A stretch of DNA of 5,293 bases from a virus (Duplodnaviria; Heunggongvirae; Uroviricota; Caudoviricetes), in IMG/VR virus record IMGVR_UViG_2695420658_000009. One strand, given 5' to 3'. The position numbers were made by a program, and so were the translations under genes. Of this stretch, positions 1-5,293 are shown piece after piece. Below the pieces are notes generated by a model, which was given only the letters and a program-made list of their open reading frames with translations, did no database searches and was not told the DNA's origin. Within the stretch, counting starts at the first letter, position 1. Every line of letters starts with the position of its first letter.

Positions 1-306
1 GAAGGAGTGTCCGTTAAACTCAGGCTACCTCAATTTGCGCTGGGAAGTGGTGCGCAAGTTGCGTCTAGTGGCGATATTTATGGTTCAGTGTGGGAAAACA
101 ACTGGTTAAGCACATGGCTGCATAATCATGTCGTTCGGGATATTCGTCTTGGCAGCATTGAATATAAAAACGTATGGCGCGACTACGGCTTTGGCGATGC
201 GTCAGGTTATGTTTTAACAGCCGCAATTAACAGCAATGCGGATGATATTGTCGACACTGTTGCCAGAAGGCCAATTCAGAAATTGATTGGGGGAATATGG
301 TACAAC
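1..306 (+). CDS. side tail fibre protein, distal C-terminal region (partial: 5' end upstream of window, last codons lost in N-run)
   Basis: Frame 1 is open from base 1; the GTG at 7 is internal, not a real start. The translation ...SGDIYGSVWENNWLSTWLHNHVVRDIRLG...RRPIQKLIGGIWYN parallels the C-terminus of the minus-strand fibre cassette (...RYVRDVRLG...RPIQKLINGTWYNVSQV*). It is followed by a Tfa chaperone gene, the usual fibre-chaperone order. Confidence 0.6.
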
Positions 307-862
307 NNNNNNNNNNNNNNNNNNNNNNNNNNNNNNNNNNNNNNNNNNNNNNNNNNNNNNNNNNNNNNNNNNNNNNNNNNNNNNNNNNNNNNNNNNNNNN
401 NNNNNNNNNNNNNNNNNNNNNNNNNNNNNNNNNNNNNNNNNNNNNNNNNNNNNNNNNNNNNNNNNNNNNNNNNNNNNNNNNNNNNNNNNNNNNNNNNNNN
501 NNNNNNNNNNNNNNNNNNNNNNNNNNNNNNNNNNNNNNNNNNNNNNNNNNNNNNNNNNNNNNNNNNNNNNNNNNNNNNNNNNNNNNNNNNNNNNNNNNNN
601 NNNNNNNNNNNNNNNNNNNNNNNNNNNNNNNNNNNNNNNNNNNNNNNNNNNNNNNNNNNNNNNNNNNNNNNNNNNNNNNNNNNNNNNNNNNNNNNNNNNN
701 NNNNNNNNNNNNNNNNNNNNNNNNNNNNNNNNNNNNNNNNNNNNNNNNNNNNNNNNNNNNNNNNNNNNNNNNNNNNNNNNNNNNNNNNNNNNNNNNNNNN
801 NNNNNNNNNNNNNNNNNNNNNNNNNNNNNNNNNNNNNNNNNNNNNNNNNNNNNNNNNNNNNN
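307..862. other. masked/unresolved bases (556 N)
   Basis: Run of n in the input. By context it hides the fibre stop codon and most of the plus-strand tfa gene. Confidence 1.
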
Positions 863-915
863 TGGTCAGCCGTGTGGATACGGCAAATCCTGAATGGCCA
901 CAAAAGCCTGAATAA
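863..915 (+). CDS. tfa: tail fibre assembly chaperone (Mu U / Tfa family), C-terminal 17 codons visible; start lies inside the N-run
   Basis: The visible end ...VSRVDTANPEWPQKPE* (TAA 913-915) matches the C-terminal RVD-x-ANPEWP motif I recall for Mu U-type Tfa proteins. It sits downstream of a fibre gene. Confidence 0.6.
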
Positions 916-966: not shown

Positions 967-1503
967 TTACTGGCAGGCTGGAGGTGTCTGTGGATTCAAN
1001 NNNNNNNNNNNNNNNNNNNNNNNNNNNNNNNNNNNNNNNNNNNNNNNNNNNNNNNNNNNNNNNNNNNNNNNNNNNNNNNNNNNNNNNNNNNNNNNNNNNN
1101 NNNNNNNNNNNNNNNNNNNNNNNNNNNNNNNNNNNNNNNNNNNNNNNNNNNNNNNNNNNNNNNNNNNNNNNNNNNNNNNNNNNNNNNNNNNNNNNNNNNN
1201 NNNNNNNNNNNNNNNNNNNNNNNNNNNNNNNNNNNNNNNNNNNNNNNNNNNNNNNNNNNNNNNNNNNNNNNNNNNNNNNNNNNNNNNNNNNNNNNNNNNN
1301 NNNNNNNNNNNNNNNNNNNNNNNNNNNNNNNNNNNNNNNNNNNNNNNNNNNNNNNNNNNNNNNNNNNNNNNNNNNNNNNNNNNNNNNNNNNNNNNNNNNN
1401 NNNNNNNNNNNNNNNNNNNNNNNNNNNNNNNNNNNNNNNNNNNNNNNNNNNNNNNNNNNNNNNNNNNNNNNNNNNNTGCGACAATGTTTTTTAAATGCTG
1501 CAT
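967..1503 (-). CDS. tfa: tail fibre assembly chaperone, alternative copy (U'/Tfa'), body masked
   Basis: Minus-strand ATG at 1503-1501 gives MQHLKNIVA..., close to the Mu U N-terminus (MMHLKNI...) as I recall it. The ATG overlaps the stop of the upstream fibre cassette (TAATCATG). Bases 1000-1476 are N; the visible C-terminus is ...LNPQTPPACQ*. Confidence 0.5.
   Translation of the reverse strand: MQHLKNIVAXXXXXXXXXXXXXXXXXXXXXXXXXXXXXXXXXXXXXXXXXXXXXXXXXXXXXXXXXXXXXXXXXXXXXXXXXXXXXXXXXXXXXXXXXXXXXXXXXXXXXXXXXXXXXXXXXXXXXXXXXXXXXXXXXXXXXXXXXXXXXXXXXXXXXXXXXXXXXXXLNPQTPPACQ
1000..1476. other. masked/unresolved bases (477 N)
   Basis: Run of n in the input. Confidence 1.
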
Positions 1504-1505
1504 GA

Positions 1506-2432
1506 TTATACCTGCGATACGTTATACCATGTTCCGTTAATTAACTTTTGTATTGGTCTGAATACTGCCGGATCATCACCATCGACTTCACCGATAATAC
1601 CAAGCCCCGTGATTACATGGCCTGATTTTTCATACATCACGCCTTTCTTCATGGTCTAAACAACTCGTGTGCCAAGTCTGACATCTCTCACATAGCGGGA
1701 ATCAAAGTTACCGTAATCCGAGGGATTAACACGTCCCGTAATATTTATGGTTTTATTACTTTGAATGCTTCCGGAGACAAAGCGCATAACATGGACGTTA
1801 TTAGCATAAACATCCAGATTACCATCGCCTTTTTGTTTAAAGCCCGTGTCATTATCACCCAATACAATCGAATTACCGCCAAGAGCACTGGATGTTCCGA
1901 TACCCAGTGCACCATTCAGTTGACCACCAGATAACGGCAGTGCACCAACATCTCCTGCTGAAGGTTTTCTGGTGGTGTAAAATTCGGACCAGTCGGCTTC
2001 AAAACCATAACCATCACGGGCTGAACGATAAAAAATACCGCCATTTTTATAATTAATCCGAAACTGAGCTGCAGGACAACTTCCTTCTCCCATATAAAAA
2101 TGAATAATTAACGTTGATGCACCACTAATAGTTGCGTTATAGGCTCCGCTACTCCAGTTCCATCCAACTGCTTTATCATTCGCAACGGTGCTTCCTGTTT
2201 TCCCTAAGGCAAACGCACCAACATGACTTGCTTTTAATGTGATATCGGAGGAACCATCAAAAGCCACATTGCTTATTTTCCTGGCAGTTTTTAATTTTGC
2301 AGCTGTAGAAGCATTGCCGGATAGTTCACCAGAAAGGCCACCGCTGAATGTTTGTCGATTAGTCCAGGTATTCGCTGTACTGAGTAACGGTATTTTCTCC
2401 CCGCTTGTGCCGAGTTCTCGTAAACCGAGGTT
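1506..2432 (-). pseudogene. alternative tail fibre C-terminal cassette (S'v-like), promoterless and start-less, with an in-frame amber codon at 1656-1658
   Basis: The minus-strand frame is open from the crossover site (codon NLGLRELGTSGEK... begins at 2432) to TAA at 1506-1508, apart from one TAG at 1656-1658. It contains the fibre-typical glycine-rich motif ...GGNSIVLGDNDTGFKQKGDGNLDVYANN.... The 49 codons after the TAG stay in frame and align with the plus-strand fibre (…RPIQKLINGTWYN vs …RPIQKLIGGIWYN). Confidence 0.6.
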
Positions 2433-2440
2433 TTAGATAA
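2415..2440. other. gix/hix/pix-like site-specific recombination (crossover) site, 12-2-12 architecture
   Basis: TTCTCGTAAACC GA GGTTTTAGATAA differs at about 3 of 26 positions from the gix sequence TTCCTGTAAACCGAGGTTTTGGATAA as I recall it. It lies at the junction between the start-less fibre cassette and the invertase gene, where gixR sits relative to gin in Mu. Confidence 0.6.
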
Positions 2441-2494
2441 TGGCGGTTTCTGGCCTGCATGGCATGATTTGTGCTTTTGGACGGGAGATTCAGC

Positions 2495-2821
2495 GTGCTG
2501 ATTGGCTATGTAAGGGTATCAACAAATGACCAGAATACAGACCTGCAACGAAACGCTCTTGTTTGTGCAGGATATGAACAAATATTTGAAGATAAATTAA
2601 GCGGAACAAGGACAGGCCGACCTGGATTAAAACGTGCTTTAAAGCGCCTTCAAAAAGGTGACGCACTGGTTGTCTGAAAACTGGACTGACTGGGGCACTG
2701 TATGCGGCATCTTGTCGTGCTGGTGGTGGAAGCCTAGAAAAAGTATCGGGTGTTGCTGAACCGTGTTGATACATCAACTGCACCTGATATTGAGTGGCCT
2801 ACGAACCCTGTCAGGGAGTAA
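2495..2821 (+). pseudogene. pin: pin/gin-family serine DNA invertase, N-terminal 60 codons intact, then nonsense codons and an in-frame fusion to the 3' end of a tfa gene
   Basis: GTG at 2495 follows a GGGAGA Shine-Dalgarno (2483-2488). Translation VLIGYVRVSTNDQNTDLQRNALVCAGYEQIFEDKLSGTRTGRPGLKRALKRLQKGDALVV* matches the Pin/Gin N-terminus including the catalytic-serine motif YVRVSTNDQ. In-frame continuation is [45 protein letters not shown]. Stops are at 2675, 2687, 2735 and 2819. The last about 30 codons are a Tfa C-terminus (…[24 protein letters not shown]…), not invertase. Confidence 0.7.
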
Positions 2822-2993
2822 TCATTGGGATTATGCCGCAGCACGTCTTAAGCANCTTAGATGGTAAATGTCTCGCCTGTGCTATATTTTGTTTTTCGGT
2901 TAGTTAAATATCGTACGTTCATATTTGAACGTTCTGCCGGAATGCATTATCAATAGAGGTAAAGTCGCAACCCCAAATCGTAAAGGAAACCGT

Positions 2994-3018
2994 AGCACGT
3001 CTTAAGCAAGAACGTGCT
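2994..3018 (-). terminator. possible intrinsic terminator downstream of the methyltransferase gene
   Basis: Inverted repeat agcacgt (2994-3000) / acgtgct (3012-3018) with an 11-nt loop, 11 nt after the methyltransferase stop. On the minus strand it is followed by the U-rich stretch UUUCCUUUACGAUUU. Stem is short and the U-tract is interrupted. Confidence 0.3.
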
Positions 3019-3029
3019 GCGGTTGGATG

Positions 3030-3848
3030 CTATTTTTTCCCTGAAGCGGAAAACATTACTACAGTACCTTGAACCCTGGTTTTAACATTCTCGAAATGCT
3101 CTGAGAGTATATGTGTTAAGCCTTCTTCGGAATCTTTTGTGTTTGAAAAGATGCCTTTCTGATTGTAAATGCGCATCAGTTTTTGACCGAAGCTATTGTG
3201 CACAACTCCATCGCCAAGAATTGTGGCTCCGTATAGAGTTCCATCGTCAGTTAAGGCCTGCGCCGCATTGCGTATTACACAGCTTTTTGTAGATATATTT
3301 CCAGGCAGGCAGTGAAGAAGGTAAAACATGGAAATGGAATCAAATTGACCATGTAACGCCGCGGGATAAGGTTCAAAAACATCATGGCTAATTTTATGTT
3401 TAATTTTTGATTCCCCAGCCCTTGTAGATGCCGCGTTCAGGCTAGCTTCGTTCAAATCCATTAAAGATATCAGACTACTCTCAGGTACGTGAGTAAGGTA
3501 AAACCCAGTTCCAACACCAATATCCAGATGGTTGTTACCTAAATGTTCCAGAAAGTGTGGAAGAAGGTGTTCCTTTGTAGGACATCCCCATGCAAGCCGA
3601 TTTGATACTCCCAAAACCCACCAGTCATAAAGCTTTAGGGTAAGTGGTGTGTAAATTTTAGCCCCATCATCTGTGTTTNNNNNNNNNNNNNNNNNNNNNN
3701 NNNNNNNNNNNNNNNNNNNNNNNNNNNNNNNNNNNNNNNNNNNNNNNNNNNNNNNNNNNNNNNNNNNNNNNNNNNNNNNNNNNNNNNNNNNNNNNNNNNN
3801 GTATGCTTCGATACAGCAGGAGCCGAATGGCTGGAAGACCGTCACCAC
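3030..3848 (-). CDS. class I SAM-dependent methyltransferase (small-molecule/O-MTase-like; no DNA-MTase motifs seen); N-terminal part partly masked
   Basis: ORF of 272 codons with stop TAG at 3030-3032. It has the SAM-binding motif I HLDIGVGTGFYL followed by an acidic strand end (LISLMDLNE) and a later FDSISMFYLLHCLP segment, the canonical Rossmann-fold MTase order. No (D/N/S)PP(Y/F/W) or PCQ motif is present. The start is uncertain: GTG at 3846-3848 with no clear SD, and bases 3679-3800 are N. Confidence 0.65.
   Translation of the reverse strand: MVTVFQPFGSCCIEAYXXXXXXXXXXXXXXXXXXXXXXXXXXXXXXXXXXXXXXXXXNTDDGAKIYTPLTLKLYDWWVLGVSNRLAWGCPTKEHLLPHFLEHLGNNHLDIGVGTGFYLTHVPESSLISLMDLNEASLNAASTRAGESKIKHKISHDVFEPYPAALHGQFDSISMFYLLHCLPGNISTKSCVIRNAAQALTDDGTLYGATILGDGVVHNSFGQKLMRIYNQKGIFSNTKDSEEGLTHILSEHFENVKTRVQGTVVMFSASGKK
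3679..3800. other. masked/unresolved bases (122 N) inside the methyltransferase 5' region
   Basis: Run of n in the input. Confidence 1.
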
Positions 3849-3879
3849 ACAGTTCTACATCCAGGAATTTAGTGAGTAT

Positions 3880-4230
3880 ANNNNNNNNNNNNNNNNNNNN
3901 NNNNNNNNNNNNNNNNNNNNNNNNNNNNNNNNNNNNNNNNNNNNNNNNNNNNNNNNNNNNNNNNNNNNNNNNNNNNNNNNNNNNNNNNNNNNNNNNNNNN
4001 NNNNNNNNNNNNNNNNNNNNNNNNNNNNNNNNNNNNNNNNNNNNNNNNNNNNNNNNNNNNNNNNNNNNNNNNNNNNNNNNNNNNNNNNNNNNNNNNNNNN
4101 NNNNNNNNNNNNNNNNNNNNNNNNNNNNNNNNNNNNNNNNNNNNNNNNNNNNNNNNNNNNNNNNNNNNNNNNNNNNNNNNNNNNNNNNNNNNNNNNNNNN
4201 NNNNNNNNNNNNNNNNNNNNNNNNNNNNNN
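3880..4230. other. masked/unresolved bases (351 N) between the methyltransferase and the Rha-proximal ORF
   Basis: Run of n in the input. All three listed ORFs crossing it are open only because N cannot encode a stop. Confidence 1.
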
Positions 4231-4410
4231 CATGGTTCAATGGTCCGTCTGCCCCCTGTGGTGATGTCAGCAAAATCAGCCACTGCGCGAACCACAATAG
4301 CCCGGGAAGATGCTGAAGATCACCAGGTAAAGCTGTCAGCGCAGAAACTGGAAGAACTGCTCGCATCAATGGTTAAGGATGAGGTTGATCGCAATGATGG
4401 GATTTATTGA
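4231..4410 (+). CDS. hypothetical protein, C-terminal part (start hidden in N-run), ending at TGA 4408-4410; possibly an interrupted longer gene
   Basis: Plus frame 1 is open across all visible sequence with E. coli-like codon choice: ...MSAKSATARTTIAREDAEDHQVKLSAQKLEELLASMVKDEVDRNDGIY*. The same frame stays open for 29 more codons after the TGA, to TAA at 4498-4500. Minus-strand frames in 4296-4536 are broken by stops. Confidence 0.4.
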   Translation, partial: HGSMVRLPPVVMSAKSATARTTIAREDAEDHQVKLSAQKLEELLASMVKDEVDRNDGIY

Positions 4411-4536: not shown

Positions 4537-5094
4537 TTAAAACCGCATCAACCTTTCCACCAATTGTTCTTTACGGGCAACGATCCACCCATGTTGCTCC
4601 AGATAAAATTTAAACCGTTCCAGAGTGCATACCATCGCATCGGCGGGGACTTTTTCTGTGAACTCGACCTGACCGTGTTTATCGAAGTGGATCAGTAATG
4701 CGCATCCATTATTTGGGGCGGGGGAGTTTTGTGCTGCAGGAGGACGTTTGTGGAGTTCTTCTTCCATTGCGTTAAATTTTTCAATGTAAGCTTCTTTTAG
4801 TCTGGCTGCTTTTTTGCCAGTAAATCCCATTACGAGGAACATGAAGCCGTCTTTTGTGATCAGGTAGCATCGTGATTCACGTTCTGCGCCGTTGCCAATT
4901 TCGACAGTCTGAACATCGGCCGAAAAGTTGGCTGATGTAAATTCGGGAGAGCAGTCGAGTGTGTCAATCTTAGCTAAAACGTGTTTATGTTGTTTATCGA
5001 AGTAGTCGGCAACAGCTTGAGAGGTGGTAACCAGGCGACCATCTTTGAAAAAGACTTTTGGTGACTCGTTAGAAAAAGTTATAGCTGTATTCAT
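4537..5094 (-). CDS. rha: Rha-family phage regulatory protein (antirepressor-like, Phage_pRha domain)
   Basis: ATG at 5094-5092 is preceded by GGAG with a 9-nt spacer. Translation MNTAITFSNESPKVFFKDGRLVTTSQAVADYFDKQHKHVLAKIDTL...YLITKDGFMFLVMGFTGKKAARLKEAYIEKFNAMEEEL... carries the Rha signature (LxMGFTGKKAxxxKxxYIxxFNxME). Stop TAA at 4537-4539. The TTG at 5109 in the ORF track is unlikely to be the start. Confidence 0.8.
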   Translation of the reverse strand: MNTAITFSNESPKVFFKDGRLVTTSQAVADYFDKQHKHVLAKIDTLDCSPEFTSANFSADVQTVEIGNGAERESRCYLITKDGFMFLVMGFTGKKAARLKEAYIEKFNAMEEELHKRPPAAQNSPAPNNGCALLIHFDKHGQVEFTEKVPADAMVCTLERFKFYLEQHGWIVARKEQLVERLMRF

Positions 5095-5121: not shown

Positions 5122-5155
5122 TCACCACCTCTGACGCCAATCAGGGAGGTGGTGA
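5122..5155. promoter_or_regulatory. inverted repeat with 10-bp perfect arms in the rha leader/upstream region
   Basis: tcaccacctc (5122-5131) and gaggtggtga (5146-5155) are exact reverse complements separated by 14 nt; an inner tga/tca pair extends the stem. Confidence 0.3.
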
Positions 5156-5254
5156 GACGTACAGGGTTGGCGTAACCGGTCATCACAAAACCCGGCGCGG
5201 ATTTCTCCGCCCCTGCACGCCCCACCATAATGCGAATGTGGCAATGCTTAACGC

Positions 5255-5274
5255 AAAAAAAACCGCAAACGCGG
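5255..5274 (-). terminator. possible intrinsic terminator reading leftward (minus strand) upstream of rha
   Basis: On the minus strand: CCGC-GTTT-GCGG hairpin (plus coordinates 5263-5274) followed immediately by TTTTTTTT (plus 5255-5262). The stem is only 4 bp, so weak. Confidence 0.3.
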
Positions 5275-5293
5275 CTATGCGTTGTGATGTTAT

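Follow-up and report, generated by a model that had tools for sequence, protein, structure and literature searches.

The window, by which we mean the whole 5,293-nt stretch of DNA analysed here (virus record IMGVR_UViG_2695420658_000009), carries an amber codon (TAG, 1656..1658, minus strand) inside the reading frame of cassette A, which specifies one of two alternative tips for the C-terminus of a side tail fibre. This codon is very probably a CAG-to-TAG nonsense knockout of that tip and, because the invertase, the other cassette (cassette B) and the constant part of the fibre are also damaged, one lesion among several in a decaying prophage. In the mechanism that we propose, a single C-to-T transition on the coding strand, changing a CAG glutamine codon to TAG, would have inactivated cassette A before the sampled lineages of Shigella sonnei split, essentially all of which would therefore be carriers of TAG. 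The change would have removed the last 49 residues of the fibre, the conserved end of its tip domain, and in the lineage of the window the whole device would be dead, with a 60-aa invertase stump and the other cassette severed by an insertion sequence (IS). The amber is thus an ordinary nonsense pseudogene in a cryptic prophage and not a special coding device.

Amber codon and reading frame of cassette A

The locus is a Gin/Pin/PinB-type invertible segment of a lambdoid prophage adjacent to trpA, with two opposed fibre C-terminal cassettes that each have their own tfa gene (cassette B and tfa on the plus strand, tfa' and cassette A on the minus strand). Cassette A (1659..2426, minus strand), the alternative C-terminal part of the fibre, extends over 256 codons between the crossover core and the amber codon. 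It is silent in the window, where no sequence that could express it lies upstream, and its severed end (1506..1655, minus strand; 49 codons plus TAA) stands in public annotation as a 48-aa ORF. A sequence-only reading of the window had placed TAG in the minus-strand fibre frame and followed that frame through 49 further codons to a TAA, and both statements hold. TAG is read at positions 1658-1656 (cta on the plus strand at 1656-1658), and the translation of 1506-2444 on the minus strand (...FDSRYVRDVRLGTRVV, stop, TMKKGVMYEKSGHVITGLGIIGEVDGDDPAVFRPIQKLINGTWYNVSQV, stop) contains this single stop followed by 49 in-frame sense codons before the TAA at 1508-1506. The same reading had this TAA overlapping the start of tfa', which is wrong, as 2 nt separate it from the ATG at 1503-1501. 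It was right that the plus-strand cassette (33-306) has no stop across the homologous stretch (VVRDIRLGSIEYKNVW...RRPIQKLIGGIWYN).

The ORF listing cuts the minus-strand frame in two, a 203-aa ORF (1656..2267) and a 48-aa ORF (1506..1652), and the product of the latter bears the public name 'putative tail fiber protein (GpH) [Shigella sonnei]'. Intact E. coli fibres end in exactly the 48 residues that follow the first residue past the stop, a threonine, and NCTC86 shows zero base differences from the window over positions 1506-1657; the downstream continuation is evidently no chance open frame. Further decay past the stop was not seen, which is compatible with a recent mutation but also with continued use.

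The codon in related prophages and phages

Comparison of the codon across orthologous cassettes, a check that the sequence-only reading had proposed, gave CAG in all eight non-Shigella orthologues and TAG only in S. sonnei, where it was present at five of five loci (L005, L007 of strain 53G (HE616528), L010 and L011 among them). Of the three explanations offered by that reading, this supports a nonsense mutation in the non-expressed cassette. In DNA alignments, CAG is carried by the E. coli prophages in OZ040035 and NCTC86 and by Yersinia phage L-413C, and it is also found in the P2-like phages vB_EcoM-569R9, 899, P24B2, vB_YpM_22 and vB_EcoM-720R8; the six P2-like phages with CAG (L-413C included) are plaque-forming. 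In OZ040035 and NCTC86 the cassette makes up the 3' end of a tail-fibre gene that is annotated as intact, with a tfa gene behind it; in L-413C it does so for gene H, with G behind it. Orthologues that all stopped at this position ahead of a separate conserved downstream gene would have made positions 1506-1655 an independent small ORF, as the sequence-only reading had pointed out; instead, the annotated fibre CDS runs through to TAA in E. coli and in the six phages, and tfa or G begins 3-4 nt later.

By megablast, six complete E. coli genomes have a nearly identical copy of the cassette and P2-like phages have copies ~88% identical to it; cassette A is 98.7% identical to the 3' part of an intact 934-aa E. 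coli fibre. A 61-nt megablast query run against 5426 complete E. coli genomes detected the tip in six, all without TAG, and the exact 32-mer around TAG had no match in species-representative genomes, a set that probably contains no separate S. sonnei representative. With L-413C as the outgroup, only four changes in the 930-nt S. sonnei cassette are derived (a Thr-codon deletion, an Asn>Lys replacement, one silent change and the nonsense change), and these four are common to every S. sonnei locus examined, in both orientation states of the segment.

Public sequence data carry the same allele. At least 1000 public contigs under the name S. sonnei, from independent assemblies, carry the 48-aa ORF and at least 1000 carry the 203-aa ORF, an exact look-up of the 48-aa product retrieved 2201 blocks of public assemblies, and finished genomes such as 53G also carry products bounded by TAG. 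The unmasked part of the window is 99.7-100% identical to four of the eight loci retrieved by the 48-aa product (L005, L006, L008, L012). A sequencing or assembly error in a single record could appeal only to one ambiguous base elsewhere in the window (n, position 2856), and its probability is practically nil: base-call error is excluded because exact stop-bounded products recur on at least 1000 contigs of independent assemblies, finished genomes included. Taken together, the orthologue, look-up and outgroup results indicate that TAG is in all probability a real, fixed and lineage-specific point mutation of S. sonnei. The allele, which public annotations of S. sonnei already show as a pair of small ORFs, could serve as a convenient S. 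sonnei-specific marker.

These comparisons also bear on the proposal that the stop is overcome under some conditions, by amber suppression or programmed read-through, to give full-length cassette A, which we consider highly improbable. A supE-type (glnV) suppressor would revert the CAG>TAG change exactly to the ancestral Gln, and the 49 codons past the stop are undamaged. However, a gene that depends on suppression should combine a conserved stop with a cognate suppressor tRNA, whereas CAG stands in eight of eight non-Shigella orthologues, all phage orthologues among them, and ARAGORN found tRNA genes to be absent from the window. The stop is derived, confined to one host lineage and removes a conserved tip end, and the locus is otherwise decaying (invertase stump, IS truncation, tfa fragments), leaving the earlier suggestion of a fibre that needs amber suppression without support. 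Natural fixed amber suppressors are not a known feature of Shigella, which also counts against it.

Loss of the conserved end of the fibre tip

When glutamine was restored at the amber position, the cassette matched solved Mu fibre tips in phmmer searches (8JU3_A, 9e-55; 5YVQ_A, 5e-16), and Pfam gp37_C (PF12604) matched cassette A (1.4e-7). The phmmer alignments to 8JU3_A/5YVQ_A extend to residue 306/308 of the Gln-restored cassette; the 5YVQ alignment pairs cassette residues 231-306 with Mu S residues 424-502, and residues 422-486 of 8JU3_A (Mu S/S') are aligned with the severed end of cassette A. Among the segments aligned with Mu, FDSRYVRDVRLGT precedes the stop in cassette A, and the conserved motifs SGHVITG and RPIQ.INGTWYNV (RP.QK.INGTWYNV) lie past it. 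The plus-strand cassette B of the window ends in RRPIQKLIGGIWYN, the same terminal motif. Homology to the Mu S / P2 H-type tip therefore runs through to the C-terminal end. The severed 49 codons correspond by homology to the final ~50 residues of the Mu fibre tip, and the amber thus falls within the terminal tip domain.

In the fibres of Mu, P2 and T4, the tip domain is needed for receptor binding and for chaperone-assisted trimer folding. On the strength of the 5YVQ and 8JU3 alignments and of this general knowledge, the amber-truncated fibre is expected to be non-functional, because it would lose the end of a domain needed for binding and folding. The C-terminus has been described in this fibre family as the receptor-binding end, dependent on a downstream chaperone (PMC7460101; PMC9608196).

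We also considered a functional arrangement, in which a shortened fibre is accompanied by an independent 48-aa protein, started from the ATG 3 nt past the stop and possibly by re-initiation, or in which the stop provides an OFF state and so makes an ON/OFF switch out of a host-range switch; its chance of being correct is very slight. The sequence TAG ACC ATG does place an ATG one codon past the stop, and the allele is fixed in S. sonnei and present in both orientations of the segment. That ATG, however, is no new start but encodes an ancestral Met inside the fibre (every orthologue has QTMKKG), with no convincing Shine-Dalgarno sequence before it in the window, and zero orthologues end at this position. 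The arrangement would also forfeit the conserved tip motifs held in common with Mu S, and fixation by drift is to be expected in a pathogen that is clonal, arose recently and is full of pseudogenes. A deliberately shortened tip, the remaining suggestion of the sequence-only reading, likewise finds no support in a stop that is derived and lineage-restricted and that removes the conserved tip end. Under the preferred reading, a nonsense knockout, cassette A of the S. sonnei prophage cannot give a complete fibre.

Decay of the invertible segment

One 26-bp Din-family (gix/bix-type) crossover site with a GA core, TTCTCGTAAACC GA GGTTTTAGATAA (2415..2440), is the sole site left in the window. In its right half the site is the same as bixR, from the B segment of S. 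boydii (Table 3, PMC3241671), and it differs from bix at two left-half positions; compared with the same table, the stf-side site of 53G is exactly bixL and the pin-side site of CP044151 is exactly bixR. Its partner is gone from the window, where an IS-bounded break lies at 32/33, and both sites are kept in 53G and CP044151.

Outside the segment lies the remnant of a pin-type serine invertase (2495..2677, plus strand), in which 60 codons, the 5' 180 nt of the gene, survive ahead of a TGA; beyond the TGA come more stops and then a fusion to a tfa fragment. Pfam Resolvase (PF00239) matches the remnant only at profile positions 2-69 of 145, so that what adjoins the segment is not an intact serine invertase but 60 codons of the Resolvase N-terminal domain. 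S. sonnei shares this stump with E. coli ST131 and OZ040035, so that the invertase would have died long before the amber arose.

Of cassette B, which encodes the other fibre tip, a 3' fragment is left (33..306, plus strand), detached from the rest of the fibre gene and with its last codons in a masked run. In S. sonnei 53G this fragment has its match at the end of a 918-aa fibre, and the 104-aa truncated cassette B product was found on 585 contigs. The truncation is caused by the end of an IS3-family element (1..32, no strand assigned), which matches L005 and not 53G; in L005 a transposase (HTH_Tnp_1 and rve domains) comes next and then phage lysis genes, with no fibre constant part. Complete genomes that match the window have the same IS in place of the fibre constant part and the second recombination site.

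The fibre assembly chaperone gene of cassette A, tfa' (967..1503, minus strand), is mostly N-masked in the window, and its equivalent in L005-L012 encodes an intact 177-aa Caudo_TAP protein. The tfa gene for cassette B (323..915, plus strand) is also mostly masked, with only its last 53 nt readable (...VSRVDTANPEWPQKPE, stop) and with an approximate start, the length of the masked run departing from the reference loci; its equivalent in L005-L012 is a 175-aa Caudo_TAP gene. The masked N-runs at 307-862, 1000-1476, 3679-3800 and 3881-4230 are 65, 26, 11 and 90 nt longer than in L005, respectively, either because the masks do not preserve length or because the source has small insertions, and feature coordinates inside the masks are approximate for this reason.

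Since the invertase is a 60-aa remnant, cassette B is cut by an IS and the constant part and second site have been replaced, the switch in the window is a fossil: in this lineage no fibre is expressible from either cassette, and no second recombination site is left. With cassette A incomplete and the switch a fossil, positions 1506-2426 (minus strand) should be annotated as one pseudogene and not as two small 'tail protein' genes.

Comparison with known systems

The locus resembles the Mu G segment with gin in having two opposed fibre C-terminal cassettes (S-U and S'-U' in Mu), each followed by its own tfa, 26-bp GA-core sites with a site inside the fibre frame, and an invertase gene just outside the segment, and the cassette A tip aligns to the Mu S and S' structures 5YVQ and 8JU3. 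It differs from the G segment in that the S. sonnei constant part is of the lambdoid Stf type (phage_tail_N) instead of the Mu S type, only 60 aa of the invertase remain and one tip has an amber codon. The window, moreover, is without the second site and the constant part, the place of which is taken by an IS in matching complete genomes. The S. sonnei crossover sites are in essence those known as bix from the B segment of S. boydii (Tominaga et al. 1991, cited in PMC3241671). The pinB of S. boydii is an active invertase, whereas the adjacent gene in S. sonnei is truncated.

Cassette A DNA is 88% identical to that of L-413C over 877 nt (the 3' part of gene H and the start of G), and the last 100 residues of the gene H tips of L-413C and related P2-like phages are nearly identical to cassette A. 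In contrast to cassette A, the phage genes have CAG in place of the stop and are read through; they come from working phages that have no inversion switch, and the N-terminal two thirds of the proteins are unrelated. The locus is also like Shigella cryptic-prophage pseudogenes, with point nonsense, IS3-family insertion/deletion, IS1 copies and gene fragments at one locus; we found no distinguishing difference, and this is the category to which the S. sonnei amber belongs.

Segment orientation in other S. sonnei

Other S. sonnei genomes have a whole fibre gene. The complete gene of strain 53G encodes a 918-aa fibre ending in cassette B (277 contigs), and in CP044151 and others the constant part is joined to cassette A, giving an 875-aa amber-stopped product (72 contigs). 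Comparison of the four junctions of 53G and CP044151 showed that the flanks are swapped within a shared 13-bp A-CCTCGGTTT-AC core. The segment thus occurs in S. sonnei in both orientations with exchange at the site core, an exchange that is impossible in the lineage of the window. The 13-bp overlap marks the exchange as site-specific recombination, and homologous recombination between long inverted repeats was rejected as the cause of inversion in S. sonnei because the junctions share only 13 bp at the dix core. Both states can also be seen in the record UGZB01000001.1 (L009, L010), the contig ends of which overlap by ~26 kb (offset 4,933,332 on both flanks) and carry the 2.9-kb segment in opposite orientations, which suggests a mixed culture with ongoing inversion.

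Both orientation states carry the same invertase stump, so an invertase encoded elsewhere must have acted, and a trans-acting invertase is implied by these sequences as the agent of inversion in S. sonnei. Cross-complementation between Gin, Cin, Pin, PinB and Hin is textbook knowledge, and inversion in trans is for this reason not new in kind. That the segment evidently still inverts in some S. sonnei despite its own dead invertase is nevertheless a mildly useful lead.

The orientation data also divide the claim, made in the sequence-only reading, that the amber changes what the switch can produce. The claim fails for the window, where the switch is a fossil, and stands for S. sonnei with a whole fibre gene: because both orientations occur there, one position of the switch yields an intact fibre and the other a truncated one, and because the segment still flips, the amber allele can reach the expressed position, as it has in the 72 contigs with the 875-aa product. 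This product may have some residual role in such strains. It is conceivable that an orphan segment, flipped in whole-fibre strains by an invertase elsewhere, works as an ON/OFF fibre phase switch or is rescued by a supE-like suppressor, the allele being kept because it is useful and not by drift, but we judge this very unlikely and retain the nonsense knockout as the explanation.

A different organisation was observed in E. coli. In OZ040035 and NCTC86, both cassettes share a proximal stretch of ~775 bp at 98-99% identity, which forms a long inverted repeat in the segment (L001 4001-4775 and 6225-7000, and likewise in L002 and L004; window 1672-2446). The two cassettes differ only in their last ~165 nt and in their tfa genes, and S. 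sonnei is without this ~775-bp duplication. Such a pattern suggests gene conversion between the cassettes or swapping of the tips only.

Other features of the window

Rfam family RF02799, CssrB ('Chromosome-encoded Shigella sRNA B'), matches positions 2842-3021 (plus strand) over its full length with 191.9 bits. Relative to S. sonnei L005-L012 and to E. coli, CssrB is a ~155-nt insertion flanked by a 15-bp direct repeat (AGCACGTCTTAAGCA), placed inside a hairpin between a tfa fragment and the methyltransferase gene, and because of it the window is identical to none of the complete genomes compared. In 9 complete E. coli genomes, EIEC CFSAN029787 among them, its 139-nt core recurs at 100% identity, and the insertion looks like a small mobile element.

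At the other end of the window, a C4 antisense RNA (RF01695, 75.9 bits; 5145-5232, minus strand) and a partial isrK-like match (23 bits, below the gathering score; 5256-5293, minus strand) lie upstream of Rha-family (4537-5094) and ash-family genes, a region that looks like the remnant of a P1/P7-type immunity module beside the fibre switch. Around the methyltransferase gene, tfa C-terminal fragments are found at 2724-2854 (plus strand), 3801-3880 and 4231-4410 (plus strand), and one tfa fragment is fused to the invertase stump. These scattered fragments are traces of repeated rearrangement at the prophage end, shared with E. coli ST131.
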